DNA from: a virus
DNA length: 64,000 bases
Strand: one strand, 5' to 3'
IMG/VR virus record: IMGVR_UViG_3300045303_000182
Coordinates: 1-64,000 of that record
Below the pieces are notes generated by a model. It had not been told where the DNA came from. It did not search any database and saw only the letters and a program-made list of their open reading frames with translations. Made by a program: the position numbers and the translations under genes. This document shows, piece by piece, positions 17,008 to 33,791 of the stretch (positions are counted from its first letter, which is position 1; every line of letters begins with the position of its first letter).

Positions 17008-17796
17008 CTACGGACTCGGGGCGATCGCAGCGCCCTTGTCGGTGATCCAGATCCCGCCGCCACCATCAGTCCACACCGCTCCCGCTCCTGACCCAGTCCT
17101 GGCGCGGATCGTGATGGCGTAGGTCTGCGTCACCGTCGGCCTGATGATCGCGTCCCAGTTGAGGAAGGCATAGGTGGTCGGCGTGTAGGCGTACACATCC
17201 ATGACGAAGCCAGCGATGACCGGCGCGCACGACAGGGTGAAGTTGACGTACTGCGTGGAGTTCAGCGCTCGGCAGGTGACCTTCATCTCGTACTGCCGAC
17301 CCGCCGTCAGCGGCGCGCTGATCGTGTAGATGGTGGTGTCCGTCGTAGTCAGGGGGATGCCCGCCTGGGTGCCCTGCTTCCAAGCGATGATGGATCCGGT
17401 CCGATCGATCGGCACCGCGTCGGTGTCGTACCAGATCTCAAACCCGGTGGCGATGGCGTCGGGATCGTCCGGGCCGATCCATATCTCATCACTGCCTGGT
17501 GCCGGGGCGTCGGGGTCGTACCACAGTTCCTTGAAGGCATCAGTCGGAGCGTCGTTGCCGATCCAGACCTCGTCAGCCCCGCCACCGCCTCCACCGCTGC
17601 CTTCGCCAGCCCACACCGGGAACTCGCAGTTGCCTGCCTGGAAGAAGACCCAGCCCATCATCGGGCCGAGCGGGAGAGAACCCATCGACTCGGTGATCGT
17701 GATCGATGTCTCACCAAACACCTGAGGAACGAACGCCTCGATGGACCCTGGCCCTACGGAGATGGCCTTGGCCCGGTAGAGAGACGGGTGGTCCAC
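17008..17796 (-). CDS. Baseplate spike (gp5/VgrG OB-fold-like N-terminus) fused to fibre-like C-terminal domains
   Basis: LYRA...IEAFVPQVFG...GWVFFQAGNCEFPVW resembles the gp5-OB pattern YRG..VP.V.G..VWV.F..GD...PVW; duplicated DEVWIG..P....ELWYD.D repeat. Confidence 0.6.
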   Translation of the reverse strand: MDHPSLYRAKAISVGPGSIEAFVPQVFGETSITITESMGSLPLGPMMGWVFFQAGNCEFPVWAGEGSGGGGGGADEVWIGNDAPTDAFKELWYDPDAPAPGSDEIWIGPDDPDAIATGFEIWYDTDAVPIDRTGSIIAWKQGTQAGIPLTTTDTTIYTISAPLTAGRQYEMKVTCRALNSTQYVNFTLSCAPVIAGFVMDVYAYTPTTYAFLNWDAIIRPTVTQTYAITIRARTGSGAGAVWTDGGGGIWITDKGAAIAPSP

Positions 17797-17799
17797 CGT

Positions 17800-18099
17800 C
17801 TACCTCACGAACAGGTGGAAGGTCTGCGCCGTGATCTCCTCGTTCTGCTCGTTCATCACGTTGGTGAAGCCGATGTTGCAGCCGAGGTCGAGGCCCTGCG
17901 TGGCGACGAGGCCGCGCGCCACGGCGATGCCCTTGCACGCCTGGTTCACGGCACCTGCACCGACGGCGCGGACGATGGGCATCTTGTGCTCATCGAAGAT
18001 CGCGATGCGGATCGAGTTCGCCACCTGCTGCACGGGGGAGTTGGTACGCACCCGAATCGTGACCTCGTCCTGGTCAATCAGTACGTCCATTCGTGACAC
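17800..18099 (-). CDS. spoVS: SpoVS-family (Alba-like) protein
   Basis: VRAVGAGAVNQACKGIAVARG signature. Confidence 0.9.
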   Translation of the reverse strand: MSRMDVLIDQDEVTIRVRTNSPVQQVANSIRIAIFDEHKMPIVRAVGAGAVNQACKGIAVARGLVATQGLDLGCNIGFTNVMNEQNEEITAQTFHLFVR

Positions 18100-18137: not shown

Positions 18138-18533
18138 TCACTCGGCCTCGTATCGAGGTATGACCCGCTTCCGCCTCATCGGGAGCCTCGAGCCTTCGGC
18201 TTCCAGGGCCACGTCGAGGATCTCCATCATCAGGTGGACGGGGAGCACCGCGTAGTAGTCCCCGACGTTGGTGGTGCCCCGCTTCTTGTGGATGGCGAAG
18301 CCCCACTTGTTGCCGGCGTTCTTCATCTCCGCTGCTAGCTCGCGCTGGGTCTGCGGAAGCTGGAAGCCCTTGCGGTCCTTGCACTCGATCGTCACCGGGA
18401 TGCCGTCGCCCAGGGTCACGTCGCCCTTGTCGCGCTGGCCCTCCTTGACGATGCGCCGGGACCACGGCCAGCCGTGAGCGCGCAGCCAGTTGACCGAGGC
18501 CGTCTCCAGCTTCGTGCCCTTGGGGTTGGTCAC
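18138..18533 (-). CDS. Holliday junction resolvase-like PD-(D/E)xK nuclease
   Basis: KGTKLE...DKGD...IECK pattern of actinophage resolvases; GTG start overlaps the upstream TGA; C-terminal RKRVIPR. Confidence 0.8.
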   Translation of the reverse strand: MTNPKGTKLETASVNWLRAHGWPWSRRIVKEGQRDKGDVTLGDGIPVTIECKDRKGFQLPQTQRELAAEMKNAGNKWGFAIHKKRGTTNVGDYYAVLPVHLMMEILDVALEAEGSRLPMRRKRVIPRYEAE

Positions 18534-18637
18534 GCCAGGAGGGTCCGGTCCTCTTCGTGGCCGCACTCCGGGCAGGTCCAGAAACCGATGTCGTCGTCGT
18601 GCTCTTCCATCTCAGCGTCACAGTTCGGACAGATCAT
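18530..18637 (-). CDS. 35-aa zinc-ribbon protein
   Basis: MICPNCDAEMEEHDDDIGFWTCPECGHEE; start and stop overlap both neighbours. Confidence 0.65.
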   Translation of the reverse strand: MICPNCDAEMEEHDDDIGFWTCPECGHEEDRTLLA

Positions 18638-18924
18638 GTCGTCGCTCCTCTCTTCGCCACCTCATCGATGCCCAGGATCTCGACCAGGGCCACCACCATC
18701 CTGGCACTCTGACGATATGTCAGTCCCGCGTCAGTGTCGTGCATCTGGACGCACCAGTAGTCGTGCGCGATCTGGTGGCCGATGCCACCGAGGAAGGAGC
18801 GCAGGCTGCACTCATGGTGGGCGTACTGCACCGGGTTCAACGGCACCCACGCGTCGTGCAGGTGGTCGATCGGCTCGTCGCACATCACGCACTGCGAGCC
18901 GCTGCCGTTGATCGGCATGCTCAT
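18634..18924 (-). CDS. Cys/His-containing hypothetical protein
   Basis: CVMCDEPI...HHEC. Confidence 0.65.
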   Translation of the reverse strand: MSMPINGSGSQCVMCDEPIDHLHDAWVPLNPVQYAHHECSLRSFLGGIGHQIAHDYWCVQMHDTDAGLTYRQSARMVVALVEILGIDEVAKRGATT

Positions 18925-19178
18925 CGGCCAGCGTCCTCCACGTACTCCCCGAGATCGAAGATGACCTCACGCAACGCTGCGTTGCTGTGATAGTTCTGGA
19001 ACGACCACAGGTGCTCGGCCAGGCGGAACGTGATGGGGCTGAACCGCACCGCCGAGCAGTGGAAGGCGGCGTTGGACTTGTCGAGGTGGTAGAAGTGAGC
19101 GAACGACTGCCAGAGGGTGTTCTCCAGCGAGAGCTTCGGCTCCACCTCGGTGTGTGGGATCATCGTCGGCAGCCTCAC
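18921..19178 (-). CDS. Hypothetical protein
   Basis: Coupled overlaps on both sides. Confidence 0.65.
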   Translation of the reverse strand: MRLPTMIPHTEVEPKLSLENTLWQSFAHFYHLDKSNAAFHCSAVRFSPITFRLAEHLWSFQNYHSNAALREVIFDLGEYVEDAGR

Positions 19179-19564
19179 AGGGTCGGGAGCTTGAAGCCCT
19201 CGGCGGCAGCGAGGTTGGCCTGGTCTTCGAAGTAGTCAGCGATGGTGAGCAGTTCCTTGCTGACCTCAGGGTCGCCGTGGTTCTTGGCGACGAGCGCGAT
19301 CATCTGTGCGTACGTGGCGAGGCATGGGCTGGCGAACAGATCCTGCCGACGGATGACGACGGCGTCGTTGAGCCGCGTCTTCTGGACCTCGGCCTCGATC
19401 AGCGCAGCGAGCGGAGCGGAGTCCATGCTGGTGCCGATCAGTTCTCCCGACGCCTCGTCCCGCCACGGTGGGAGGGCGAGGTAGCCCATCATCGTGTAGA
19501 ACTCGCTCGTCTTGAACGTGATGTACTTCTCTTGCTCGGTGCTCTCGTTGCTCACGGTGCCCAT
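19175..19564 (-). CDS. Hypothetical protein
   Basis: 129 aa; VVIRRQDLFASPCLATYA. Confidence 0.7.
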   Translation of the reverse strand: MGTVSNESTEQEKYITFKTSEFYTMMGYLALPPWRDEASGELIGTSMDSAPLAALIEAEVQKTRLNDAVVIRRQDLFASPCLATYAQMIALVAKNHGDPEVSKELLTIADYFEDQANLAAAEGFKLPTL

Positions 19565-20049
19565 CGGCTTGCCCTTCTCTCGGATCCCGCCGCACCGATG
19601 CGACGAGATAGTTCTCTGCTGACCACGAACACGGAGCGCTCGCAGTTGTCGTACATGACCTTGGTGACCTTGCGCCTGGCGTAGGCGTTGAGCGCATCAG
19701 TCTTGGCCTTCACCACCGTCGGGTCCAGAGCGATCTCCGCACGGACCTCGGTGACCTTGGTCTTCGGACCATACGCTCGCACCATCCCGCTCGCCTCGAG
19801 GAACCGGACCTGTGCGTTCGCGCGCTCCTCAGCGACCTCGGCCTCAGCGAACTGCACCGCCGAGTAGTTCTGCCAGCCGGTGAACTGCACGAACAGTTCC
19901 ATGAGTGACTCATCACCGATGTCGCTGATGTTGGTGGGGATGTCGGGCAGGTCGTAGTCAGGCAGGTCGAAGAGACCGCCGCCGCTTGTCGGACTTGGCT
20001 CGGATGACTCGGGTGGCTGGCGCGGGATCGTCCGCTTGCGTTGTGACAT
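19552..20049 (-). CDS. Helical/coiled-coil protein (possible recombination mediator)
   Basis: Helical composition, VSRELSRR C-terminus, next to Cas4-like and RecA genes; N-terminal RKRTIPR. Confidence 0.7.
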   Translation of the reverse strand: MSQRKRTIPRQPPESSEPSPTSGGGLFDLPDYDLPDIPTNISDIGDESLMELFVQFTGWQNYSAVQFAEAEVAEERANAQVRFLEASGMVRAYGPKTKVTEVRAEIALDPTVVKAKTDALNAYARRKVTKVMYDNCERSVFVVSRELSRRIGAAGSERRASRWAP

Positions 20050-20947
20050 CTAGTGCTCCCAGGTTCCAACAGGCCCTGCGGTAGGGACAGGACTTACATA
20101 TCTTGCTATCGGAGTCTTCGGCCCAGTCGGGCCGTGCCGGCGGGCTGCCAGCAGCCACGGCCTTGGTGACCTCACGCGCGACCTCAAGGACGGGAGCGAT
20201 CATCGCAGGGTTGTAGGCGACGACGAACTCCTTCACCTGCTGGTGGAACTTGGACTCGTAGATGAAGCAGATCTCCTCGTACCGCGGCCACGCCATCCAC
20301 AGGTACAACTGGGCCTGCTTGAGGTGGGTGCCGAAGGGGCGCTGGATCTTCCACCAGATGTTCTCCAACGTCTCGCCGTCGAGGTAGCGCTGGTGCAGGC
20401 GGGGTGCCTCCATGCGGAGCGTGCCCATGCCGATCGACTTGACCTCGATCAGCCCGGTCCAATCGTCCAGGTCGTGGACCGCGCCGTCGGCGTGCCCACC
20501 GACGAGCTCACGGTTGAGCGGCACCTCGCGGTACATCAGCCGGGGTGACATGCACTCGGGGCACTCCCGAGGCGAGAGGCCGTCCCAGTTGAAGTCGCAG
20601 GAGAGGCACAGCCAGTGCCCGTAGAGCACGCCCATCTCCCACAGCCAGTCCTGGTACTTGCCGTGGATCGTGTGGCCCTCCGCGAAGATGTTGTTCATCG
20701 TGAAGCTGGGGTTCGCCAGCGCTGCGTCCTTCTCCGAGGCCGTGCCGATGATGCGGTAGTAGTCGTGCCGACCACACCAGTCCTTCTTCGCCATCTCGCT
20801 CGGGTGCATCACGTCGTGCCGACGGGTGCTCACCTCGGTCGCCAGCGCTCGCATGACGTGGCGCTGCATCGATGGCAGCACGCGGTCGTCGCCCTTGTAC
20901 GTGTCCTTGAGCCGCTTGAGGGCAGACGGTCGCAGCGGAGGGGTCAC
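19958..20947 (-). CDS. Cas4-like PD-(D/E)xK exonuclease (phage recombination nuclease)
   Basis: HPSE...WCGR, GHTIH, GHADG, IEVKS, QxxLY, C-terminal CKSCPYRRAC; extra CxxC...CxxC insert; GTG start at 20947. Confidence 0.85.
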   Translation of the reverse strand: MTPPLRPSALKRLKDTYKGDDRVLPSMQRHVMRALATEVSTRRHDVMHPSEMAKKDWCGRHDYYRIIGTASEKDAALANPSFTMNNIFAEGHTIHGKYQDWLWEMGVLYGHWLCLSCDFNWDGLSPRECPECMSPRLMYREVPLNRELVGGHADGAVHDLDDWTGLIEVKSIGMGTLRMEAPRLHQRYLDGETLENIWWKIQRPFGTHLKQAQLYLWMAWPRYEEICFIYESKFHQQVKEFVVAYNPAMIAPVLEVAREVTKAVAAGSPPARPDWAEDSDSKICKSCPYRRACWNLGALDVTTQADDPAPATRVIRAKSDKRRRSLRPA

Positions 20948-21258
20948 CAGCGCACCGACTCCCACGTCGCCAACGTCGCGCGATCCTCGGGGAGGATGAG
21001 CTTGTCGCCCAGGTCGAGAAACAGTGAGTACTCGATCAGGTCGTCGGGGTCGTCCTCGTAGACGCGAGCGATGATGCCGTCGTACATGTAGGAGGACATG
21101 TAGGTGCCACGCTTCCACGGCAGGCCGTTCTTCTTGAAGAAGCAGGCATCACCCTTCTTGAGCGTGGCCGCGGCCCACTCGAAGACGTTGCAGACGTAGT
21201 ACTCAGTGATGCCCTCGGGCGGTTCGGTCGTGCCAGGAGGGAGCGCTGTGATGCTCAC
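20944..21258 (-). CDS. Hypothetical protein
   Basis: Coupled ORF, 104 aa. Confidence 0.65.
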   Translation of the reverse strand: MSITALPPGTTEPPEGITEYYVCNVFEWAAATLKKGDACFFKKNGLPWKRGTYMSSYMYDGIIARVYEDDPDDLIEYSLFLDLGDKLILPEDRATLATWESVRW

Positions 21259-21686
21259 TGGTCTTCGGGGCGACCCTCAAGGAAGCCGATGACGAACTGA
21301 TCCTGGTTCCGCTCCTGCTCCTCGCGTTCGTCACGGTCCAGTGCCTCGGCCAGGCGAGCGACATCCTCGTCCTCCTCGACCTCTTCGATGGTGCCCTCGT
21401 TGTCCTTCCAAGGCTCCCGCGCGAGGAACTCCTCGACCTCTGTCCTCCCGCCGGCAGCGTGGACGCGGCGCACCTCGTACAGGTTGACGGCGACCTGCAT
21501 GGCGTTGGCGAACCAACCCACCATCAGGCCGGGATCGACCGGGCTGTTCTGGCCGGGGTTGAACTCGTCGGCCATGACCATCTTGCCGTTGAAGATGCGG
21601 CAGAACTCCTCGGCCCACACCATCGCGTCATCGGTGCCCATGAGGGTGTGGTCGGTCGTCTGAGGTTGTTGTGGCTCGATCGTCAT
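21255..21686 (-). CDS. Hypothetical protein with acidic C-terminus
   Basis: DAMVWAEEF...MVGWFANAM block. Confidence 0.7.
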   Translation of the reverse strand: MTIEPQQPQTTDHTLMGTDDAMVWAEEFCRIFNGKMVMADEFNPGQNSPVDPGLMVGWFANAMQVAVNLYEVRRVHAAGGRTEVEEFLAREPWKDNEGTIEEVEEDEDVARLAEALDRDEREEQERNQDQFVIGFLEGRPEDQ

Positions 21687-21700
21687 AGCTACCTAGTATG

Positions 21701-22003
21701 TCACTTATTCGGTGGCATCAAAGCATCGAAGTCATCGCGGCTGATCACGACCAGGCCAAGGTCACCGATCTGTATGTCCAGCGCCGGCATCGCCCCACCG
21801 AGGATCGCGTTCGTCCTCAAGTCGTTCCACACGGCCTTGGAGACGGAGATCGACTTGCCATCGGTGAACTTGGCTTCCCACAAGATCTCCCGGCCCTCGC
21901 GGATGTCGTTGCGCTGCCGCCATCCGCTGCCGCTGCCGCGCGTTCGGGCACCGCCACGGCGCTTGGCGATTGCCTTCTCCTGCTCCTGCCACGAACGACT
22001 CAC
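21701..22003 (-). CDS. Small PD-(D/E)xK nuclease (second resolvase-like protein)
   Basis: QEKAIAK..GG...GSGS....ND.....LWEAKFT; GTG start overlaps the RecA stop. Confidence 0.75.
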   Translation of the reverse strand: MSRSWQEQEKAIAKRRGGARTRGSGSGWRQRNDIREGREILWEAKFTDGKSISVSKAVWNDLRTNAILGGAMPALDIQIGDLGLVVISRDDFDALMPPNK

Positions 22004-23049
22004 GTCCGAGGGATGGAGCGCTTGCGAGGGGAACTGGTGTTCGGTGGAGCCTGGCCGAGAACTTCTGTCCGTACCCGGATATCGAGCGCGTCCACGATGG
22101 ACTGGTCCTGACCCATCGCCTTCCACACAGCGTCCTTGCCGTTCCACTTGCCGCCTTCGAAGTGGAACCACGCACCCTTGCGCTCGATGATGTCGTGCAG
22201 CAGCGCCAGGTCGTAGACCTCACGGATGGTGTCATAGTCCCCGGCGAAGTGACCGTTGGCGTCTTCGAAGTAGAAGTCCACCTGGCCGGTGCGCCGCGGC
22301 GGTGCCGTCTTGTTCTTGATCGTGCGGCACTTGATCACCTGGCCGACCTGAACGTCCTTGTCCTTGAGCCACTCGTCGCGCGTCGCCTCGACACGGGTGA
22401 GGTAGGTGTAGTTCTTGCCACGCCCGCCAGGGGTGGTGCGTGGGTCACCGAACTGGACGATGGCATCGCGCCACTGGTTGACGCAGATGACGAGGATCGG
22501 CCGCTCGTACTCGGTGAAGCTGCGCGACGCCGCCGTGTAGGTCTTCCGCATGAACTTGTTGGTGAGCAGTGCGCCCTTGCCCACCGTCATCTCGCTCATC
22601 GTCTTCTCGTCCTCCCAGGAGGGGACGAGGGCGGGCAGGGAGTCGATGATCACGGCGTCGGCGGCACGCTTCTTCATGACCTCGAGGCACGCCTCGTAGA
22701 CCTCCTCCATGATGTTGGACATGATGAAGGTCATCCGGCTGGCGTCCACGCCGAGGGTGGCAGCCCAGCCGAAGTCGAAGTCCTCGGAGGCAGCCCACAC
22801 GGTGTGGTAGTCGGGGTTGAGCGCCTGCTGGGTGGCGATGGTCTTGAGGACCGAGGATGTCTTGCCGCTGCTCTCGTTGCCGATGATCTCGTTGACGCCG
22901 TTGAGCGGCCAGCCACCGCCGAGCATGAGATCGAAGCTCAGGGAGCCTGTGGAGGCCCGCAGGAAGCGCCTGTCGAGCAGGTCCGCACCTCGGTAGAGCA
23001 ACTGCTCCTTCTTGTTGAGCCTTGCCATCACGTCATCGATCTCAGTCAT
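22000..23049 (-). CDS. recA: RecA/UvsX-like recombinase
   Basis: STGSLSFDLMLGGG, Walker A GNESSGKT, IIDS Walker B, NQWR, TTPGGR; C-terminal RKRSIPRT. Confidence 0.93.
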   Translation of the reverse strand: MTEIDDVMARLNKKEQLLYRGADLLDRRFLRASTGSLSFDLMLGGGWPLNGVNEIIGNESSGKTSSVLKTIATQQALNPDYHTVWAASEDFDFGWAATLGVDASRMTFIMSNIMEEVYEACLEVMKKRAADAVIIDSLPALVPSWEDEKTMSEMTVGKGALLTNKFMRKTYTAASRSFTEYERPILVICVNQWRDAIVQFGDPRTTPGGRGKNYTYLTRVEATRDEWLKDKDVQVGQVIKCRTIKNKTAPPRRTGQVDFYFEDANGHFAGDYDTIREVYDLALLHDIIERKGAWFHFEGGKWNGKDAVWKAMGQDQSIVDALDIRVRTEVLGQAPPNTSSPRKRSIPRT

Positions 23050-23468
23050 GCTCCACCTTGCCAGTTGGACTCCAGGCCCTGTTCGAAGAGGTCGTTGTAA
23101 CCGCAGGTGAAGCAGTGAGGCGCTGGCTGAGGGCCACGGCTCTTCTTCCCGAGGTCGTGGTAGTAGAGGGAGCCACCGCAGTTGGGACAGGGATCCGGGT
23201 TGAGCCGCGCTCCCTTGCCAGGAGCGAGGCCCTTCCCGTGCTGCTGCATGTCGAGCATCTCGGTCAGTGTTTCGGGTGGGGCCATTGGGACCGAGGGGAC
23301 CGCTTGGTCCGCTTGGACCCTCGAGGCCGGCGCTTGAGGCACCTGCTGTTGATAGCCCGGTACGGGCTGCTGATACTGGGGTACGGGCTGGCGCTGCGGG
23401 AACGGCTGCTGCCCTCCCCGAGCTTGGGCGAGCTTGCGCTGGTACCAGGAGGCGGTGTCCTCAGCCAT
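23046..23468 (-). CDS. Gln/Pro-rich protein with C-terminal zinc ribbon
   Basis: CPNCGG...CFTCGY. Confidence 0.75.
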   Translation of the reverse strand: MAEDTASWYQRKLAQARGGQQPFPQRQPVPQYQQPVPGYQQQVPQAPASRVQADQAVPSVPMAPPETLTEMLDMQQHGKGLAPGKGARLNPDPCPNCGGSLYYHDLGKKSRGPQPAPHCFTCGYNDLFEQGLESNWQGGA

Positions 23469-23640
23469 TGCGTATCACCCGAGCGGCTTCTGCCAGGAAG
23501 GCGATGAAGCTACCCGAGAGCGCGGCGTGCAGTTCAGAAGCGTCTCGCGCCTGGTCCATGCAGTCGATGAACGACGCAGCGTGGTCGTCCGCGAGCGCGA
23601 CGATGCTCTCGACCTCGGTGCAGACGGTTGCCGTTCCCAT
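23461..23640 (-). CDS. Small hypothetical protein
   Basis: ATG at 23640 with TACCGT 8 nt upstream; alternative start at 23658. Confidence 0.5.
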   Translation of the reverse strand: MGTATVCTEVESIVALADDHAASFIDCMDQARDASELHAALSGSFIAFLAEAARVIRNG

Positions 23641-23731
23641 AGCTGCGAACGGTAACACAATCCGTTTGCGGACTGACTGCGTGTTCCTGCTGCGTATGGC
23701 TCATTCATACCCTCGTCACCATCGATTCACG

Positions 23732-25861
23732 CTAGCCCTTCGCCTCTGCCCAAGTATCTCCCGTCGCCGCCGAGGCGACGAGCGGGACGGTCCCGAGGAT
23801 CGGCTTGCCGCTGACCGGATCCATGACTCCTTCCATCACCTTCTTGGTGATGAGCTCGGCCTCGGCAGCCACCTCGTCGTCAGCGATGACGATGATCTCG
23901 TCGTGGACCTGGGCGATCATCGTCGCCCCCTTCGGGAGGGTGTCATGTAGCTCGACCATCGCCAGCTTGGTGACGTAGGCAGCGAAGCCCTGACACAGGG
24001 CGTTGATCGCCTGACGCTCAGCGTGGAAGCGGATGTAGTCCTTGTCGAGTTCGAACAGGTTGGGCAGCCGACGGAGCCGTCCGAAGGGCGGGATGACGAC
24101 GCGCGGTGGGTCCATCCACGGGTTCTGTCGATCGCCTCGCTTGCGGGCCAGTTGCAGTTCGCGATATTTCCACCGCTCTAGCAGGGCGAACGTAGCGAAG
24201 TATGACCTAATCAGTTCCTGCGCCCTGTCGATGCTGCAGCGGGCCACGTAGGCGATCTTGTCGGGGCCAGCGCCGTAGAGCACGGCGAAGTTCTGCGTCT
24301 TGCCCACCTGCCTGAGCTCGGAGGACACGTCGGCCGGGTCCATGCGGAACATGGCTGCCGCAGCCGAGCGATGGATGTCCTCGCCACGCTTGAAGACCCG
24401 GACCATCTCGGGGTCACCTGATAGGAACCCGGCGCAGCGCAGTTCGATCTGGTCGTAGTCGGCCACGATCAGGCGTCGGCCAGGGCCAGCCACGAACAGT
24501 TCCCGGATCGAGTGGCGACCCTTCTGCTCGCGTGGCAACTGGTGGATGTTCGGCTCGCTGGCCGAGAACCGTCCGGTCACCGTGCCGTGGAACTTGAACG
24601 AGGAGTGGACCGTCGGCAGCCCACCGGGGTGCGAGACGAGGAACTTGTCCATGCCGTCGATGAAGGTGCCGCGCAGCTTCTCCAGGCCCGCCCAGTCGGA
24701 GAGCAACTCGGCCATGCGGTTGCCCTTCTCGGCGTAGTACTCCAGCACCGCGGCGGTGACCTGAGGTACCTCCTCCTTCTGCGTGCGCGTACGGACACGG
24801 AGGTTCTGGCTCTTGAGCTTGAGCTTGTTCTGGCCGTAGACCGGGATCGGCACGCCGGCAGGGTTGGTGTGACCGCTCTCTCCGAACAGCACCCAGCGCT
24901 TGGCGTCGAGGTTGGAGAGGGGGAACTGGTCCCCGGCGATCTTCCACGCCTCCTGCTCGGCCTCAGCGATCTGTGACTGCAGGGACGCGCGCACCTCCTC
25001 CATACGGGACAGGTCGATCGGGAAGCCGTGGACCTCCATCCGCATCACCGAGGCGTAGACCTGCATCTCAAAGTCGTAGACCTGACGCAGGCCCTTGCGC
25101 TCGAGGCGCGGGATGAGATCCTGGAACCTCATCCAGGCATATCGAACGTCCTTAGCCAGGTATCGGGCGATCTCATCCATGCCGAAGTTGTCGGTGCCCT
25201 GCTTGCCGAGGTTGGGGTACCAGGCGGCGCGCTTGTCGTAAGGCACCTTGAACCAGTCGGCGGTCAACGTCTTGAGGTCGTAGCTCATCCGGTCCTCGTC
25301 CAGGACGTGGGTGAGCACGATGGTGTCGTGGTAGGGGCCAGGTGGGATCTCGCCGCCGTAGTACTTCGCCACCGTCTCCAGGTCGAACTTGACGTTGTGG
25401 CCGACCTTGCCCTTGTCGCTGAACATGATCGGCCGCAGCAGGTCCATCACCTCATGCGGGTACAACTGCGTCGGCGGGGGCCAGTAGGTGGCCTCGACGT
25501 TGTGCTCGACCGCGCGCCACGACGGCTTGCGCTGCTCGACGGGGAGCTTGCGCGTGCCTGGCGTGTACGAGCGCACGTCGTCAGGCCCGTAGAAGAGGAA
25601 CGCTGCCGTCTTGTCCTTGTGCCGGGGCTTCTTCACCGGGCCGAGCGGGTGGCCGCAGGGGATCAGATGGACCAGGCCCTCAGCACCGATGCCGATCCAG
25701 CGAAGCTCGTTGCGTGCAGCGCCACCGAAGGTGGTCTCCACATCGAACACGAAGTTCGGGCGGTCCTTATAGAGAGCGACCGCTTGCTCTACTTCGTCTA
25801 CCGTGGTGAGGACGTGCGGAGCACGACGAAGAGTCCCCCCAGCTTCATCATCGTGCTCCAC
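23732..25861 (-). CDS. polA: Family A DNA polymerase with 3'-5' exonuclease
   Basis: Exo I FDVET, Exo II HNVKFD, Exo III YLAKD; TGRFS, motif A DYDQIELR, motif B KTQNFAVLYG, motif C VHDE. Confidence 0.95.
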   Translation of the reverse strand: MEHDDEAGGTLRRAPHVLTTVDEVEQAVALYKDRPNFVFDVETTFGGAARNELRWIGIGAEGLVHLIPCGHPLGPVKKPRHKDKTAAFLFYGPDDVRSYTPGTRKLPVEQRKPSWRAVEHNVEATYWPPPTQLYPHEVMDLLRPIMFSDKGKVGHNVKFDLETVAKYYGGEIPPGPYHDTIVLTHVLDEDRMSYDLKTLTADWFKVPYDKRAAWYPNLGKQGTDNFGMDEIARYLAKDVRYAWMRFQDLIPRLERKGLRQVYDFEMQVYASVMRMEVHGFPIDLSRMEEVRASLQSQIAEAEQEAWKIAGDQFPLSNLDAKRWVLFGESGHTNPAGVPIPVYGQNKLKLKSQNLRVRTRTQKEEVPQVTAAVLEYYAEKGNRMAELLSDWAGLEKLRGTFIDGMDKFLVSHPGGLPTVHSSFKFHGTVTGRFSASEPNIHQLPREQKGRHSIRELFVAGPGRRLIVADYDQIELRCAGFLSGDPEMVRVFKRGEDIHRSAAAAMFRMDPADVSSELRQVGKTQNFAVLYGAGPDKIAYVARCSIDRAQELIRSYFATFALLERWKYRELQLARKRGDRQNPWMDPPRVVIPPFGRLRRLPNLFELDKDYIRFHAERQAINALCQGFAAYVTKLAMVELHDTLPKGATMIAQVHDEIIVIADDEVAAEAELITKKVMEGVMDPVSGKPILGTVPLVASAATGDTWAEAKG

Positions 25862-25870
25862 ACGCGTCCT

Positions 25871-26623
25871 CTAGTACTCGTCAGCAATCTCGGCAGCGAT
25901 GCCTTCCAACTCCTTGGTCTTGGGCATCGTGATGATGTCGGCGTCGTACAGCCCGAGCTTCGCCATCTCCTCCGGGGTCGGAGCTTCGATGTCATAGTCG
26001 TCGCTCAGGCTGTGCGCCTTGATCGGGACCAACTGGTAGTTGACGGTGCCCTTCTTGCCCGACCGGCTGGCGAGGAAGTAGCCCTTGCTGATCGGTGCGA
26101 CCTTCGGGTCGCGGGCGTAGTTCTCCACGATGCCGAGCAGCTTGGGGCCGCAGTCGAACGTCTTGAGCAGCGGCACCCCGTCGTCACCGATGAGGGCGAT
26201 GTTGAAGGCGCTGACCGCCTGGGCCTTGTCCCCGGCCTCGCACAGCGGGCAGGTGGGCTTGCCGAAGTTCTTGAGGCAGTTGTAGCTGCGGAGCGAGCGA
26301 CCCGTCGGGGTCATGCGCTCGATCCAGTGACGCGTGTAGCTCGCGTACGGCTCGTCTTCCAGGAACTTGATCACCTGGATCTGCTCGGTCAGCTTGAACG
26401 CCTGAGCGAAGCTCGAGGTGGAGTCGGCCACCTGGCGTGCGGCTGAGAAGCCACGACGGATGTGGGATGACGGCTTGTCTTCGCCGCCCTCGTCTTCGGC
26501 CTCGTCGTCCTCAGGCTCCTCGACTGGAGCGGCGGCTCGACGGCTGGGTGTGGGGGCCTCGTCCTCATCCTCATCACGCTGGCGTGGGATCTGACGCGCG
26601 GCTCGCTTCGTTGGCGTTGCCAT
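25871..26623 (-). CDS. Single-stranded DNA-binding protein (gp32-like, Zn-binding)
   Basis: Start MATPTKR at 26623; IKFL, HW, C...CPLC core; acidic tail; adjacent to the polymerase. Confidence 0.75.
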   Translation of the reverse strand: MATPTKRAARQIPRQRDEDEDEAPTPSRRAAAPVEEPEDDEAEDEGGEDKPSSHIRRGFSAARQVADSTSSFAQAFKLTEQIQVIKFLEDEPYASYTRHWIERMTPTGRSLRSYNCLKNFGKPTCPLCEAGDKAQAVSAFNIALIGDDGVPLLKTFDCGPKLLGIVENYARDPKVAPISKGYFLASRSGKKGTVNYQLVPIKAHSLSDDYDIEAPTPEEMAKLGLYDADIITMPKTKELEGIAAEIADEY

Positions 26624-26661
26624 GGTGTACTCCGTTTCGTGGGTTGTGTTAGTGCAGTGTG

Positions 26662-27108
26662 TTACGTGTTGCTCGACGTGAGTTGTTCGAACAGGACTTT
26701 GACATCCCGAGCGAACGCTGCAGTCGGTGGTCGCTTGTTCAGGATCACCTTGTGCCGACGAGCGAGTCGCAGAATACCCTCGATCTGCTCCCGCGTCCAG
26801 AGGCGCTTCCCCTTGTTCGATCGTCCCCCGGCTACCGGCTTCTTCGTCCGCGGTGAGCGGAACGGGGAGCGAGGGAGCAACCCCTTGTCCTCCCAAGCAC
26901 GGATGGATTGGACCGAGTAGCCGAGGGCCTCAGCGAGGCTAGAGATCGTGAAGAACTCTTCCACCTGGCCGCTGACCATGTATCGGACGGGCTTCTCGGT
27001 CCATAGGGGGGTATCGGGCGCTGGTTCCCCCTTGGTACCCCGGTTCACCGGCTTGCGCCGGCCGGGGTAGTCGAGGTCATCGAACCGCTCTGCGAGTGAG
27101 TCACTCAC
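26662..27108 (-). CDS. MerR-like HTH DNA-binding protein
   Basis: FTISSLAEALGYSVQSIRAWEDKGLLP...RLWT. Confidence 0.85.
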   Translation of the reverse strand: MSDSLAERFDDLDYPGRRKPVNRGTKGEPAPDTPLWTEKPVRYMVSGQVEEFFTISSLAEALGYSVQSIRAWEDKGLLPRSPFRSPRTKKPVAGGRSNKGKRLWTREQIEGILRLARRHKVILNKRPPTAAFARDVKVLFEQLTSSNT

Positions 27109-27376
27109 CGTTGCCTCCAGCCGCCAGGGCTTTCGCCAGGGAGAGACGATGGGCTTCCTCCACGTCCTCGGTGGGGTACTCGATCGCCACTGCTGTGGCG
27201 AGAGCCGGGGGCGGCTCGGGAAGCTCGACGTTCACTGTGCCCACGATACGCGGGGGTGTCGGACAGGTGACGATGATCTCGACGGCGACCTCGTTGACCG
27301 CAAGCTGCGGTCGGCGCTTCGCCAGTCGTAAGTCATCACCGTTGCGGATGACGAGCCAAGTGTGGATGGTCTTCAC
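27101..27376 (-). CDS. Hypothetical protein
   Basis: Coupled ORF, 91 aa. Confidence 0.65.
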   Translation of the reverse strand: MKTIHTWLVIRNGDDLRLAKRRPQLAVNEVAVEIIVTCPTPPRIVGTVNVELPEPPPALATAVAIEYPTEDVEEAHRLSLAKALAAGGNGE

Positions 27377-27753
27377 GACGCCTTCTTCCGTCCACGTATC
27401 GGGGTGGGTTCCCGTTCAGGCCCGAGGAAGTAGGAGGGGTCGAGTGTGTCCCAGTAGGTGGCGCGCCACCAGCTGAGGTCGTGCTTCTCTTCCAACGCCT
27501 GCGTGTACCAAGGGGGCTTGTCGTAGGTGCGAGGAGCTAGGCGCTGCCCGGTGATGCGCGACACCTTGTCGTAGGCCAAGGTGCCGCACTGCACACACCG
27601 CTGCACGAACAGGTGCCCGAACTCGGGCCTCGGTGTGCCTGGCGGTGCCGGGATCGGCTCCAGCGTGTGACGCCGAGAGGCGACACAGCGGGAGGCTTCC
27701 AAGATGGCGTGAGCCAGATCTTCTTGACTGAGGCGTGGGTGTCTACGGGGCAC
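27373..27753 (-). CDS. Cys-containing hypothetical protein
   Basis: C...H...CVQCGT...Y..P..Y; CAGGAG RBS. Confidence 0.7.
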   Translation of the reverse strand: MPRRHPRLSQEDLAHAILEASRCVASRRHTLEPIPAPPGTPRPEFGHLFVQRCVQCGTLAYDKVSRITGQRLAPRTYDKPPWYTQALEEKHDLSWWRATYWDTLDPSYFLGPEREPTPIRGRKKAS

Positions 27754-27799
27754 TGTGTTACTCCTGCGGTAGGTGAGGAGCAGACCGTAGCACTAGCTA

Positions 27800-27946
27800 C
27801 TAGCGAGAAAGAATCCGACGGGCGTGGATGTAGCCCCACAAGGGGTTGTACCTGAACCCGGCGAAGCGGGTCCGCGGTCTGACCACCACGCAGAGGTCAC
27901 CGACCTCTGCGTGGCAGGTCGGGCAGTCAACAGCGAGCGTCCGCAT
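27800..27946 (-). CDS. 48-aa zinc-finger protein
   Basis: MRTLAVDCPTCHAEVGDLC...IHARR (CP.C.A..G..C...H..R); TGATG overlap. Confidence 0.65.
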   Translation of the reverse strand: MRTLAVDCPTCHAEVGDLCVVVRPRTRFAGFRYNPLWGYIHARRILSR

Positions 27947-28161
27947 CAGTGAACGATCAACTCTTCGGCTTCCCAGCGCTCCAGGCTCTCCTGCAGCGCG
28001 CGCTCGACCATGTACGAGACGCTGACGCCACGTCGGTCGGCCTGTCGCTTGAGGCGGTCGCGCGTTCGCTTCTGCGTGCGCGTGTTCAACTGGACCCGCA
28101 CCCCCTTGATCGGGGGTCGGCCTCCCTTGTTCTTCGGTGCGTCGATGACTGCGGTGCTCAT
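27946..28161 (-). CDS. Ribbon-helix-helix DNA-binding protein
   Basis: GRPP...VQLNTR...RDRLKRQADRRGVSVSYMVERAL; start at 28161 (ATGA overlap). Confidence 0.8.
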   Translation of the reverse strand: MSTAVIDAPKNKGGRPPIKGVRVQLNTRTQKRTRDRLKRQADRRGVSVSYMVERALQESLERWEAEELIVH

Positions 28162-28646
28162 GATTCTGAATCCTCTGTGAGATAGAAGGCGAACGTGCTG
28201 GACTCTGAGTAGAGAGCAGCCAGTTCCTTGTCGGTGATCTTCCCGGCGTAGTTCGCAGCGAGGATGGCGTCCTCGTCCACGGCCACGATGGTCTGTGTGC
28301 ATTCCTCGGTCAGGCCCTTGCGAGCGAGCAGCTTGAGCGCCTTGTCCTCGTCCAGACGGTTGGCGACGCGCTCGCGGCGTTCGATGCCGACGATCTTCTT
28401 GGGGGCTGCCTTGCCCGCCTTGTACTGCGTGTAGGGCAACGGAGCGTCGAGCGCGAGCACCTGCTTGTGCTTCTCGACCTGATCACCGACCGCCTCGAGG
28501 ATGCCCATCAAGTCCTTCTTGAGGCGTCCTTCGTGGTACTCGGAGCGCTCACGCATGGAGCGGTTCTGCAGGTACTCCTCGACGGCCGGCGTGAGCTCGG
28601 CAGTGGACTGGTTCCTGGGGATGACTCTCTTACGTGCTGTCGCCAT
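28158..28646 (-). CDS. Phage hypothetical protein
   Basis: 162 aa; N-terminal RKRVIPR; TAGCAT 7 nt upstream of the ATG. Confidence 0.8.
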   Translation of the reverse strand: MATARKRVIPRNQSTAELTPAVEEYLQNRSMRERSEYHEGRLKKDLMGILEAVGDQVEKHKQVLALDAPLPYTQYKAGKAAPKKIVGIERRERVANRLDEDKALKLLARKGLTEECTQTIVAVDEDAILAANYAGKITDKELAALYSESSTFAFYLTEDSES

Positions 28647-28672
28647 GTCTTACATGCTACAGAGTGATAGCA

Positions 28673-30223
28673 CTAACCGTCTACAAACTCACGTAGCGAC
28701 TCCAAGTCAAGGTTGAGCGTACCCGACTTAGGATCGAAGTCACCGTCGATGAAAGCCCTGCTCACGGCACGTTTCTGGATGAGCATGTTGAACATCCGCT
28801 CCTCGATTGTGCCCTCCCCGAACATGTACCCGACCATGATCTGATCGAAGGCTGAGTTGGTCCGATCGATGCGGCTGATGCGCTGAGACAGTGCCCCGGC
28901 GCTCCACGGCAGGTCGTAGCAGATGAGGTGGCTGCCCTGGTTCAGGTCCACGCCGTAGGCCCCGGCGTCCGAGGAGAGGAAGACCCGACAGTCGGGGTCG
29001 GTGTTGAAGCGCACGATGTTGGCGTCCCGCTGCGCCGTGCTCACGTCCCCCGTTATCTTCACCCAGTGGACAGACCTCTTGGCGAACTCAGCACCCATCA
29101 TCGCGAGCATGGGCTTGAAGAACGAGAAGATGACGAGCTTGTGCCTGGGATCCTCGGTGAGGATCTCCTCGGCGTGCTCCATCAGTGCGTCGAGCTTGGC
29201 TGTGTTCGCTGGGAGGTTGTCGAGCAGGCCAGCAGCCTTCAGGTCGCTCGCGTACTGCGACCCGGCTGCTGATATCTCACTATCGAACTGGTCAGCCGAG
29301 AGCCGCAGCAGTTGGGGGTGGCTGGACAGCATCCGCATGGCGAGCATGCGCGACATGACCTGGCCCATCGGCGTGGTGGCACCGTGACCGTCGGCGCGGC
29401 CGTAGTGCGCCGCCAGGTTGAAGCCACCGCCCTGGCCTGCCTCCAGGGCCTGCTCGATCGCCAGGCTCAGATCCTTCTTGACGTACTCATGGAGGGCCAT
29501 GGCTGCCGGGTCGAGGGTCACCGGCATCTCCAGTTCGATCATGTCCGGGAGCCACTCCTTGATGTCCTCGCGGCTCTTGCGGTACATCGCCTCGCCCAGG
29601 CGCTGCTTGATCAGCCCAAGGTTGCGGTACTTCTTCGGCTTGCCCCAGTGGTCGCGCTCGATGAACGTGCGATCGAACTTGGGGAACGGACCCAGCACCT
29701 CGGGGTTGATGAACTCCATGATCGAGAAGAGCTCCTCGGGCCGGTTCTCGACAGGTTGTCCCGATAGCCCGATACGGACGGGACATGACTTGCCCAGCAC
29801 CTTGGCCCGCCGGGAGGTCTTCGCGCTGAAGCCCTTCAGCATCGTGACCTCGTCAGCGATGATGAAGTCGATCGGCAGGTACTGCTTGATCTCCTCCCAG
29901 TCGTGGATCAGACACTGGTAGTGGAGGATGGTGTAGTTGAAGCGGTGGGCCTTGCGGATGGCCGCGACGCGCGCCTTCTTGTCGCCGTCCACCACCTGCA
30001 CGCTGGCCCTGGGATCCCACTTCTTGATCTCGCGGACCCACTGGCCCTTCGTGCTCTTGAGGGCGAACACCACGCCGTGATCGACCTGGCGCTGCCGGCG
30101 CATCTTCCGCACCGCAGCGACGGACGTGGCTGTCTTGCCTGCTCCCATGGTGAGGGCCAGCAGCAGGTCGCCGCGAGCGATGATGCGCTCGACGGCCTCG
30201 GCTTGGTAGGGGCGTAGCTCCAC
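28673..30223 (-). CDS. SNF2/SF2 helicase-ATPase
   Basis: LRPYQ, MGAGKT, IADE, LSGQPVEN, GVDL, QRISRIDR; GTG start at 30223. Confidence 0.92.
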   Translation of the reverse strand: MELRPYQAEAVERIIARGDLLLALTMGAGKTATSVAAVRKMRRQRQVDHGVVFALKSTKGQWVREIKKWDPRASVQVVDGDKKARVAAIRKAHRFNYTILHYQCLIHDWEEIKQYLPIDFIIADEVTMLKGFSAKTSRRAKVLGKSCPVRIGLSGQPVENRPEELFSIMEFINPEVLGPFPKFDRTFIERDHWGKPKKYRNLGLIKQRLGEAMYRKSREDIKEWLPDMIELEMPVTLDPAAMALHEYVKKDLSLAIEQALEAGQGGGFNLAAHYGRADGHGATTPMGQVMSRMLAMRMLSSHPQLLRLSADQFDSEISAAGSQYASDLKAAGLLDNLPANTAKLDALMEHAEEILTEDPRHKLVIFSFFKPMLAMMGAEFAKRSVHWVKITGDVSTAQRDANIVRFNTDPDCRVFLSSDAGAYGVDLNQGSHLICYDLPWSAGALSQRISRIDRTNSAFDQIMVGYMFGEGTIEERMFNMLIQKRAVSRAFIDGDFDPKSGTLNLDLESLREFVDG

Positions 30224-30227
30224 TATG

Positions 30228-30557
30228 TCAACAGTACTGGCGGGGGATGATCCTCTTGCGGGGCGTGGACCGGAGGATGAGCCGGTACTCAAACAGACCC
30301 CTGCGTGGATCGCCCCGACGCCGACGCTCCACCGTGTGCCTACCGAAGCGGGCCTTGCGGAAGTCACGCAGGCGAGCGCTGATGGACTGGAGGGGGTAGT
30401 AGTCCCCGCCGCTGAGGACGATCATCTCCTGGATCTCATCCAGGGTGCGCCACGCACCGTCCCGTGTGATGTCGAACACCACCCGCCACTGACCCGTGAG
30501 ACGCACCCCATCCAGTCGGATGTCGAATGTCTCACCGTCGAAACGATGGACTGTCAT
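30228..30557 (-). CDS. Winged-helix-like phage DNA-binding protein
   Basis: DGAWRTLDEI...SISARLRDFRK..FG...EYRL; start at 30557; C-terminal RKRIIPR. Confidence 0.75.
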   Translation of the reverse strand: MTVHRFDGETFDIRLDGVRLTGQWRVVFDITRDGAWRTLDEIQEMIVLSGGDYYPLQSISARLRDFRKARFGRHTVERRRRGDPRRGLFEYRLILRSTPRKRIIPRQYC

Positions 30558-31481: not shown

Positions 31482-32822
31482 CTAGTACTCGTCGTCGTCG
31501 TCTGCGAGCTTGTCCGGTCGCTGCCGTAGCCGCTTCGCCTGCAGCATCGGGTCCAGTTCCTCGACCGACCCCTCGCTCCAGTCCCACTCCAGGATCACGT
31601 TCTTGCGTGGCCCGGAGCGGCTCTCGATCACCCTGAACTTGATCTGCACAGGCCCAGCCGTGACGATCTCGTTCTCCTCGTCGTTGTTGCCCCCCGGTGT
31701 CGTCGGGGTGATGCGCTCGACACCGAGGAGGATGTCGGCGTCCTGCGCCCACGACTGGCTGTACATCGCGCTGCCCATGTGCAGCCCGCCCTTCGACCGC
31801 GTCTGCGACGCCTGCGTCGTGACCACGATCGGGATCTTCGATGACTGCGCCAGCCGTTTGAGGCCGCGCGAGATGCTGGTGATCGCCTGAGCCGAGCCGG
31901 GTTCGAACCGGGCCTCCTCGGACTGCATCATGTATGCGCCATCGACTATCACAACATCAGGCTGTAGCTCCTGGATCTTGGCCTGGATGCCTGACACCGT
32001 CATGCCCGACGTGATGTCCGAGGAGAACAGCAGCGAGCGCATGCCGAGCATCGCCTTGTGCGCTGCGTCGATGCGCTTGCGCTCGTTCACCGACATCGTG
32101 CCATTCATGATCTTGGTGAGGTTCACGCCGGCGATCAGCGACAGGGTGCGGTCGGTCTGTTCGATGTTGCTCATCTCGAAACCGACGAACAGCGGACGGA
32201 AGGCGCTCATGTGGATGCGGATCGCCATCGCCAGAGCGGTGGCTGACTTGAAGCTCTTCGGGATACCCATCAGCACCACGAAGTGCTCAGGCTGCAGCCC
32301 ACCAGTGACATAGTCGATGCCCGAGAAGCCAGTGCTGATCCCGCGCAAATACCCTGGGTCGGCCTCGCGCTCGTTGAGGACGCGCTGCACCTCATCGAAG
32401 TACTCCTGCGAGGTGAAGTCGATGTCGTAGGTGCGGTTGCCCTCGACAGCCGCAGCGGTCAGCGTCTCCTTGAGCATCTGCTCCATGAGATCGGTGGCGT
32501 CGGGGTTGTCGGTGTCGTGGTAGTACTTCGCCGCCTCGTCCAGCCCAGCCACCAGGATCGAGAACTTGCGTCGCTGCAGCAGGGCGTTGATGAAGTACTC
32601 CAGCGGCTGCGGGTGGTCGTCCCACACCATCGAGGGGAACGCGCGTTGCACCACGGTGATGTCCGGGCTGGTGCTGTACTCCTTCCAGTGCTTGAGGAGG
32701 TAGCCGTAGACCCGCTTGTACTTGTCGTCGGTGAAGTGGTCCTCGGAGATGCGAGCGTTGACGGCCTGGCGCAGGTCTTGGTGGATGATCACCTTCGCCA
32801 GGAACGCTCCTTGCACATCCAT
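31482..32822 (-). CDS. dnaB: DnaB-like replicative helicase
   Basis: GISTGF..ID..TGGLQ, P-loop GIPKSFKS, FEMS, IVDG, QDAD. Confidence 0.9.
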   Translation of the reverse strand: MDVQGAFLAKVIIHQDLRQAVNARISEDHFTDDKYKRVYGYLLKHWKEYSTSPDITVVQRAFPSMVWDDHPQPLEYFINALLQRRKFSILVAGLDEAAKYYHDTDNPDATDLMEQMLKETLTAAAVEGNRTYDIDFTSQEYFDEVQRVLNEREADPGYLRGISTGFSGIDYVTGGLQPEHFVVLMGIPKSFKSATALAMAIRIHMSAFRPLFVGFEMSNIEQTDRTLSLIAGVNLTKIMNGTMSVNERKRIDAAHKAMLGMRSLLFSSDITSGMTVSGIQAKIQELQPDVVIVDGAYMMQSEEARFEPGSAQAITSISRGLKRLAQSSKIPIVVTTQASQTRSKGGLHMGSAMYSQSWAQDADILLGVERITPTTPGGNNDEENEIVTAGPVQIKFRVIESRSGPRKNVILEWDWSEGSVEELDPMLQAKRLRQRPDKLADDDDEY

Positions 32823-33241
32823 CAGATGTCCTCTCCCGGTACGACGGCGTGCCCGAGTTGGCCGTACTGGTCGAGACGGGTGGGGTCTGAATCGTAGACC
32901 CGCTGCACGTCGCGCTGGTACCTGAGGAGGGTGGCGAACTCCGAGAACGACCGGTATCGAATCTCGTCGTACTGCAGGCCCACCTCGTCCAGGAACTCGG
33001 CAGCCTGGTCAGCGAAGTCCTGGCTCACGAAGGTCACCAGATCCTGTGCCGTGTCGGGCCAGCGATCCTTCATGTACAGCATCCGCTTGAGCGGCACGTC
33101 GTACCAGGAGGCGTTGTAGCCGGTCACCTTGCTGCCGCGGAAGCGGCGCTCTGTCACGACAGGATCGACGCGGCAGAGCACCCCCTCCACGACCACGACG
33201 TAGCGCGGCCGAGTCCAAAGCTCGAGGTCACCGCGCTGCAT
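32822..33241 (-). CDS. HAD-fold-like protein lacking the DxD motif
   Basis: Start MQRGDL at 33241; VVVEGVL, LVT, VYDSD. Confidence 0.55.
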   Translation of the reverse strand: MQRGDLELWTRPRYVVVVEGVLCRVDPVVTERRFRGSKVTGYNASWYDVPLKRMLYMKDRWPDTAQDLVTFVSQDFADQAAEFLDEVGLQYDEIRYRSFSEFATLLRYQRDVQRVYDSDPTRLDQYGQLGHAVVPGEDI

Positions 33242-33791
33242 CGCAGAGGGCGGTGATGAAGTGCGTGTCGATGACCCTGGCCGGGAGGAAGTCATGCACG
33301 GGCGGCAGTGTGGTGCTGACGACGGTGGGCATCCCGTGCTTCACGCGTCGCTCGATGAACGGCTGGACGTGCTTGCGCCAGATGTTCCAGTCGATGGTGT
33401 CGTGGTGCAGGTCATCGACCCACAGCAGGCGACACCGGTAGAACAGGTAGTCGAGGCGATCCTCGATGTCGCGTGACTCCAGGAACAGAGCGAGGTCGTC
33501 AGAGTGATCGCGCTGCTTGCTCGACGCTCCCCACGTCGCGCGCACCAGGGTCACCAGATCGACGGCCTCGGTGTGCTCGGACTCCAGCCAGCCCTCTTCG
33601 TCGTAGACCATGCGAGCGACGATGACCTGCGCTGCGTACGTCGTGCCCGAGCCGCGTGGGCCGAACAGCCACAGGCCCTGCTTGCCCTCGCCAGCGAGCA
33701 CGTTCTGCCGCCACTGCCGCACGGCGTCCTTCACAGGGTCGGACAGCTTCTTGATCGACACGCCGGCATAGTTCAGTTCACTCAGGCTCAT
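33228..33791 (-). CDS. DnaC/IstB-like helicase loader with degenerate Walker A
   Basis: GLWLFGPRGSGTT, LLWVDDL, R....PTVVSTT; lies between the initiator and the helicase. Confidence 0.8.
   Translation of the reverse strand: MSLSELNYAGVSIKKLSDPVKDAVRQWRQNVLAGEGKQGLWLFGPRGSGTTYAAQVIVARMVYDEEGWLESEHTEAVDLVTLVRATWGASSKQRDHSDDLALFLESRDIEDRLDYLFYRCRLLWVDDLHHDTIDWNIWRKHVQPFIERRVKHGMPTVVSTTLPPVHDFLPARVIDTHFITALCDAAR

Follow-up and report, generated by a model that had tools for sequence, protein, structure and literature searches.

A basic terminal peptide shared by unrelated DNA-metabolism proteins of an uncultivated soil phage: a putative docking motif

[quoted passage not shown] In the clamp-binding systems (the bacterial QL[SD]LF and PIP-box peptides and, in T4, the C-terminal tails of gp43, gp55 and gp33), one short terminal motif on flexible tails connects many unrelated DNA enzymes with one hub. 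The acidic C-terminal tips of SSBs, T7 gp2.5 and gp4 (DDDIPF-type) are electrostatic terminal peptides which likewise organize replisomes. In phage T4, gp32 is a hub gathering UvsX, UvsY and nucleases. The N-terminal (B) domain of gp32 carries the LAST motif (Lys-Arg-Lys-Ser-Thr, residues 3–7), which contacts the core of the neighbouring gp32 and gives cooperative binding (PMC12893549; PMC11551737). Here, we describe a peptide with the sequence RKRxIPR, referred to as the tag, which recurs at the ends of unrelated proteins encoded by the IMG/VR virus record IMGVR_UViG_3300045303_000182. This record is the genome of an uncultivated soil phage of about 110 kb (109,846 bp; GC content 64.8%; about 93% complete by CheckV), and its first 64 kb (positions 1 to 64,000) constitute the window. 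The tag is real and terminal, is selected at the peptide level, lies on disordered tails and is kept on orthologues.

A six-frame regular-expression search of the whole 109,846-bp genome identifies five copies of RKRxIPR in the window. All are on the minus strand, they belong to five non-homologous proteins, and they lie 1–4 residues from the stop or 3–4 residues from the start. A sixth in-frame exact copy is located beyond the window, and two further proteins carry variants. The carriers are as follows.

18138–18566, minus strand: Holliday-junction resolvase-like protein (142 amino acids, aa, as the longest open reading frame, ORF; phrog_244 'RusA-like Holliday junction resolvase', E 3e-18); C-terminal RKRVIPR at 18153–18173, then YEAE-stop, thus 4 residues from the stop
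19552–20049, minus strand: 165-aa protein, probable UvsY-like mediator; N-terminal RKRTIPR at 20020–20040, residues 4–10
19958–21118, minus strand: Cas4-like PD-(D/E)XK nuclease (PF12705, E 0.002); C-terminal variant KRRRSLRPA at 19961–19987
22000–23049, minus strand: RecA/UvsX-like recombinase, 349 aa (PF00154, E 6e-35; PF21096); C-terminal RKRSIPR at 22006–22026, 1 residue from the stop, behind a Pro/Ser linker
25871–26623, minus strand: gp32-type SSB, 250 aa; N-terminal variant KRAARQIPR at 26582–26608, residues 6–14
28158–28646, minus strand: 162-aa protein; N-terminal RKRVIPR at 28614–28634, residues 5–11
30228–30557, minus strand: 109-aa small protein (phrog_25381, unknown function, E 1e-5); C-terminal RKRIIPR at 30240–30260, 3 residues from the stop
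81838–81858 of the genome (position of the tag), minus strand: 77-aa zinc-ribbon ORF directly upstream of the large terminase (Terminase_6N/6C); tag 8 residues from the stop

An earlier note on this DNA had listed the five exact sites of the window and the SSB variant, all of which are recovered at the same positions, and had missed the variant on the Cas4-like nuclease. It had also described the carriers as non-homologous, in agreement with Pfam and PHROGs, which place the five window carriers in different families or in none. Its confinement of the motif to the replication and recombination block does not hold, since one copy is found on the terminase-adjacent protein. The composition of the proteome predicts 0.0007 copies of RKRxIPR, and a copy appeared in no more than 2 of 1500 per-protein shuffles, as opposed to the six terminal copies observed. 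Stretches within 10 residues of a terminus make up about 10% of proteome positions; the real copies found there are 6 out of 6. The codons used across the copies differ at synonymous positions (Arg CGG, CGC, CGT, AGA, AGG and CGA; Pro CCT, CCG and CCC; Ile ATA and ATC), which indicates that the constraint is on the peptide rather than the DNA and bears out the peptide-level selection that had been claimed. A single out-of-frame copy, RKRPIPR at 35751–35771 on the plus strand, could speak for a pattern arising by chance or from a translated DNA-level repeat. The coding frame there reads TEEADTEV, and this copy is itself probably a chance product of reading a stretch rich in GAG and GAA in the +1 frame. 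For the pattern as a whole, the probability of such an origin is negligible: it is ruled out by the shuffle statistics, by synonymous codon differences both between copies and between relatives, and by a RecA tag that changes only synonymously, and the tag is also kept on orthologues. The gene holding the out-of-frame copy (35180–36118, plus strand) encodes an acidic protein of 312 aa for which the Pfam search gave no family.

A near-identity search of deposited phages returned no match to this phage. The nearest cultured phages are the Streptomyces phages Alone3, LuckySocke, GiJojo and BRock, whose RecA proteins are 37–40% identical and which have the same module and gene order but do not share the tag. 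A possible analogue in Alone3 is the candidate motif [VKR]RT[KA][VL]A, present at three N-termini. Equivalent tags are carried by orthologues in closer relatives. Soil-metagenome contigs with an 83–90% identical RecA keep the C-terminal end RKRSIPR[TAS]-stop, and KRAARQIPR on the SSB as well as the N-terminal tags of the 165-aa and 162-aa proteins are likewise kept. Among eight nucleotide versions of the RecA tail from close relatives, substitutions within the tag are all synonymous, in contrast to a linker that differs in both length and sequence; the tag peptide is under purifying selection. K/R swaps in the tag are rare in this close clade, and the aliphatic residue and the Pro are strictly kept. 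The C-terminal ends of resolvase orthologues are lineage-specific basic tags, and the nuclease tail, in the form [KR]3-x-L-[RGQ], is kept in tag-bearing lineages and missing from several low-GC relatives. Upstream of recA, the close relatives encode at least three different small proteins which end with the same extended tag after a beta-strand-like stretch.

L002, 3609–3971: small gene ending RKRxIPRQELNGD-stop
L038, about 6047: small gene ending RKRxIPRQELNGD-stop
L040, about 1566: small gene ending RKRxIPRQELNGD-stop

As different small protein bodies share one RKRxIPR end, the tag is portable between proteins, and the tag-coding end of these genes may be a mosaic recombination junction. 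The 77-aa protein next to the terminase retains RKR[VI]IPR in orthologues which are only 41% identical, and other lineages have, upstream of the terminase, a different protein that terminates with PRKRTIPR and additional basic residues. The presence of tagged terminase neighbours in several lineages would fit a tag that targets a place and not a partner, such as the capsid, with which the proteins would be co-packaged and injected, or the membrane or a compartment for replication, and basic peptides can generally bind acidic lipids or packaged DNA. Still, the carriers are classical recombination enzymes of the cytoplasm that are required in large amounts, and the tag is found at N- and C-termini alike, unlike the known capsid-targeting sequences of T4; we therefore regard targeting to a place as very improbable.

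To follow the tag into distant lineages, an SSB-family profile was used, which yielded about 80 IMG/VR loci, and 120 SSB homologues were compared at the N-terminus. High-GC homologues start with [ST]-K-R-x-[AV]-R-x-[IV]-P, whereas low-GC homologues start acidic; some homologues hold two tag copies. Five orthologues of the high-GC lineages bear a terminal [KR][KR]x[VIL]x[RK], and do so down to an SSB identity of about 40%; the peptide is located at the N-terminal ends of the SSB, the 165-aa and the 162-aa proteins and at the C-terminal ends of RecA and the resolvase. The tag occurs in distinct flavours, each common to several proteins of one genome.

L064: RKRTV.R
L084 and L088: RRR[SV]IPR
L101 and L105: [ST]KRPxPP
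L120: xLKR
L089 and L090: RQI[NST]

The co-variation of these flavours was assessed by comparing the tags of different protein families in 16 lineages with 5000 permutations. Cross-family tag similarity within genomes is 18.4 compared with 16.1 ± 0.3 after permutation, and 0 of 5000 permutations reached the observed value, in a set of lineages which are related and whose start codons were picked by a heuristic. The result is unchanged when the lineage of the window itself is left out. In the low-GC sister clade, the same genes are present but RecA and the resolvase have no tail, the UvsY-like protein has no N-terminal extension and the SSB starts acidic; with the entire set untagged, the presence of the tag is all-or-none. 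In L089, L090 and L104, it is the primase that ends with a Pro linker followed by KKVRT or KKMKR, and RecA lacks a basic tail, which means that membership of the tagged set shifts between lineages. The tag is thus gained and lost as a module and changes in concert between lineages.

The carriers themselves resemble a T4-type recombination kit, by analogy consisting of a gp32-fold SSB, a RecA/UvsX-like recombinase, a probable UvsY-like protein, a resolvase and a nuclease. The SSB is composed of the tag, an acidic linker of about 40 residues, a core starting at about residue 58 and an acidic-aromatic C-terminal end, ADEY. In its AF2 model the core reaches a pLDDT above 90, while residues 1–50, which form the tag-bearing tail, are at 49–62 and the tag is modelled as coil. 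The top Foldseek matches of this model are the gp32 cores of RB69 and T4 (probability 1.0); the protein has no Pfam match and carries a gp32-like H-C-CxxC zinc site. The 165-aa protein has no match in Pfam, PHROGs or profile searches against PDB sequences. Its AF2 model is a long helical hairpin (pLDDT about 55 at residues 1–20) whose top PDB matches are the T4 UvsY structures 4ZWQ and 4ZWT at weak E 0.04–0.2 and TM 0.59–0.67, and other helical hairpins score similarly. Among its ESM Atlas neighbours, PF11056 UvsY appears in 12–19% of members. This protein is probably a UvsY-like recombination mediator, a call that is weak given the lack of any sequence-level match. The 162-aa protein has no family in Pfam, PHROGs or profile searches against PDB sequences either; it is weakly similar (E 3e-4) to an Alone3 gene annotated 'host nuclease inhibitor', and the ESM Atlas gives a weak lead to Mu-Gam/DUF7173 (12–19% of members). 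Family alignments show that the tag is an add-on in both cases, namely an N-terminal one absent from tag-less lineages in the 165-aa family and one missing from some lineages in the 162-aa family. The ATG of the 109-aa ORF, which has a GC3 of 0.79, overlaps the primase stop, and its product is plausibly, judging from its sequence, the winged-helix protein that the earlier note had labelled it.

Behind RKRTIPR, the 165-aa protein has a linker rich in Ser and Pro and then another conserved N-terminal motif, LFDLPDYDLPDIP (19936–19974, minus strand; consensus LFxxPxFxxPxLP). This second motif is kept in all lineages, tag-less ones included, and may serve docking in its own right. In Alone3, the orthologue (35% identical) of this protein is gene 162 (25733–26215), annotated 'SSB protein'. 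Its annotation seems to be N-terminally truncated, as an upstream in-frame ATG adds about 46 residues including the conserved PELP motif.

The position of the tag, 1–10 residues from a free terminus at either end and on disordered tails, is also that of terminal degrons. ClpX, for instance, recognizes basic C-terminal signals such as that of MuA. The tag could accordingly be read as a degron, an unfoldase signal of the ClpX type or a modification site (e.g., for ART-like enzymes), by which the recombination proteins would be turned over, or be active, on a common schedule; an ART-like protein is encoded by the phage according to the earlier note. A stoichiometric SSB is, however, an unlikely target of common degradation, no protease, adaptor or kinase is found among the proteins of the module, and terminal placement is explained just as simply by appended modules. 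There is also no evidence of ART-like proteins acting on phage proteins. This explanation is hence improbable, and of the suggestions made in the earlier note, a portable terminal tag on unrelated DNA-metabolism proteins stands, while the ART-like link and the degron found no support.

The closest known element to the tag is the LAST motif, or N-terminal domain, of gp32. Each is a short, basic peptide lying in the first 15 residues of an SSB with the gp32 fold, although this is true only of the SSB copy of the tag. The sequences differ, as the tag reads R-K-R-x-I-P-R with an invariant Ile-Pro in place of the Ser/Thr pair and has Ser or Thr only at x, in 2 of 6 copies. The T4 domain is helical, whereas the tag contains Pro, which speaks against a helix, and is modelled by AF2 as coil with a pLDDT of about 50–62, and the acidic linker of about 40 residues separates the peptide from the SSB core here. 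Furthermore, LAST is known on gp32 only, while the tag is found on at least seven other unrelated proteins, and T4 partners are recruited via the C-terminal region of gp32 and not via a shared tag. Clamp-binding peptides match the tag in layout but are hydrophobic or aromatic with a ring clamp as their known reader. A clamp-binding motif is ruled out, as the tag is basic without the Q/L/F consensus and no beta-clamp or gp45 family (PF00712, PF02916) is detected in the genome. The acidic tails of SSBs and T7 proteins represent the reverse arrangement: there, one hub tail serves many pockets, while here many clients share one basic tail, with the charge reversed. In this genome, DnaB ends with ADDDDEY (31482–31505, minus strand) and the SSB with AAEIADEY (25871–25895, minus strand), which recalls the acidic C-terminal tails of T7 gp4 and gp2.5; relatives also have acidic-aromatic helicase tips, e.g., DNWYY in the low-GC clade. 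The tag further bears a resemblance to the eukaryotic Ku-binding motif A-KBM (R-K-R-x-L-P-x-W), in which an anchoring Trp two residues after the Pro is read by the vWA domain of Ku80. Bacterial Ku is not known to have this domain. The Ku-binding motif is ruled out and the likeness is one of resemblance only, as no tag copy has a Trp after the Pro.

We propose that the tag is a modular short linear docking motif for one shared reader, a putative function to which we assign an even chance. The proposal draws on the flexibility of the tail linkers, the invariant aliphatic-Pro core with basic flanks, the modular gain and loss and the concerted change; an I-P-R core that is strictly kept, with its aliphatic residue, is what motifs for protein docking would typically show. 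RKRxIPR would be the local version of a terminal peptide that is old, modular and basic-aliphatic, with the general form [KR][KR]x[VIL]x[RK]. The phage lineage would append it via flexible linkers to the free ends of DNA-transaction proteins, i.e., the SSB, the RecA/UvsX-like, UvsY-like and resolvase proteins, the Cas4-like nuclease, the 162-aa protein, small DNA-binding proteins and the terminase-adjacent protein. All tagged proteins would in this way be brought to the reader, where an acidic surface would receive the basic residues and a small pocket the invariant Ile-Pro. Given that no clamp family is detected and that gp32 is the hub in T4, the SSB-coated single-stranded DNA nucleoprotein is a first guess for the reader.

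Several searches were directed at this reader. A comparison of window genes between tag-bearing and tag-less loci (tblastn, with limited sensitivity) singled out only three genes, none of which has a recognizable family.

17008–17796: looks structural
32822–33295: 157 aa
21255–21686: acidic, 143 aa

A listing of acidic proteins and Pfam searches on the most acidic candidates gave nothing, and the SSB C-termini compared across lineages showed no clean difference between tag-bearing and tag-less clades. A complex prediction for the SSB core (residues 55–250) with the RecA C-terminal domain and tail (272–349) returned a score of 0.00 and made no call, so it weighs neither way.

Several points tell against a shared docking motif. 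The reader it predicts has not been found in the analyses made. With respect to the SSB, the helical nature of the gp32 N-domain fits poorly with a Pro-containing tag that is modelled as coil. The SSB segment IRRGFSAARQ (residues about 54–68) looks more like the true equivalent of that domain, in which case the SSB may be one more client and not the hub. Partnership with an SSB is not obvious for the terminase-adjacent and winged-helix-like carriers, and part of the co-variation signal may reflect clade-level decay of an ancestral xIPR form. Finally, every carrier is DNA-binding itself, and a plain DNA-binding arm fits this just as well.

Such an arm, comparable with an AT-hook or the arm of a homeodomain, would raise the DNA affinity of each carrier independently and would need no protein reader. 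It would suit a set of carriers made up of an SSB, a recombinase, a resolvase, a nuclease and zinc-ribbon, winged-helix-like and terminase-adjacent proteins. The tag is also strongly basic, directly follows a wing-like beta-strand in the small proteins and is present twice on some SSBs, and the T4 LAST sequence recurs in the single-stranded DNA-binding trough of gp32 (PMC12893549). Yet the DNA is constant between lineages while the tags shift in concert within genomes, and the strictly kept aliphatic residue and Pro and the rare K/R swaps would be needless for a purely electrostatic arm. Moreover, the polymerase, DnaB, the primase and the SNF2 helicase bind DNA as well but are untagged here. 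A generic arm is for these reasons the less probable explanation of the tag, but a serious rival. The AT-hook proper, with its Arg-Gly-Arg-Pro core, is ruled out, as the tag has no Gly and its core is x-Ile-Pro-Arg in 6 of 6 copies.

In a wider form, the docking proposal would make the tag the client half of an undescribed hub-and-motif system, which we put forward tentatively as a possibility somewhat short of even. A dedicated reader would bring together the proteins for recombination, replication restart and packaging in a large high-GC uncultivated clade; it might be the gp32-type SSB, through its acidic region or its core, or else an unannotated acidic phage protein. The system would replace the sliding clamp as organizer and would co-evolve with the tag. 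The literature gave no description of such shared basic terminal tags, and the tag would represent a new instance of shared docking-motif logic, basic and lineage-variable, for which no published description was found. If true, the recombination-dependent replication and the packaging of phages would be wired according to a new principle. The tag offers a handle on the organizing hub of a large uncultivated phage group as well as a simple rule, based on sequence, by which unknown phage genes could be assigned to DNA metabolism.

A loose-motif scan also turned up a possible weak and degenerate tag variant, ARRILSR, which may be chance.

27800–27946, minus strand: 48-aa zinc-finger protein (PF24623 Phage_zn_bind_8, E 5e-8); C-terminal end ARRILSR at 27803–27823

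Apart from the replication enzymes named above, a second resolvase-like ORF (21701–22003, minus strand; Holliday-junction type, phrog_2002, E 7e-22) is untagged in this genome. Its GTG start overlaps the RecA stop (GTGA), and the RecA tag codons lie just upstream of that start. Adjoining the tagged resolvase is a gene for a SpoVS-family protein (17800–18099, minus strand; PF04232, E 9e-16), which is kept in tag-bearing and tag-less clades.

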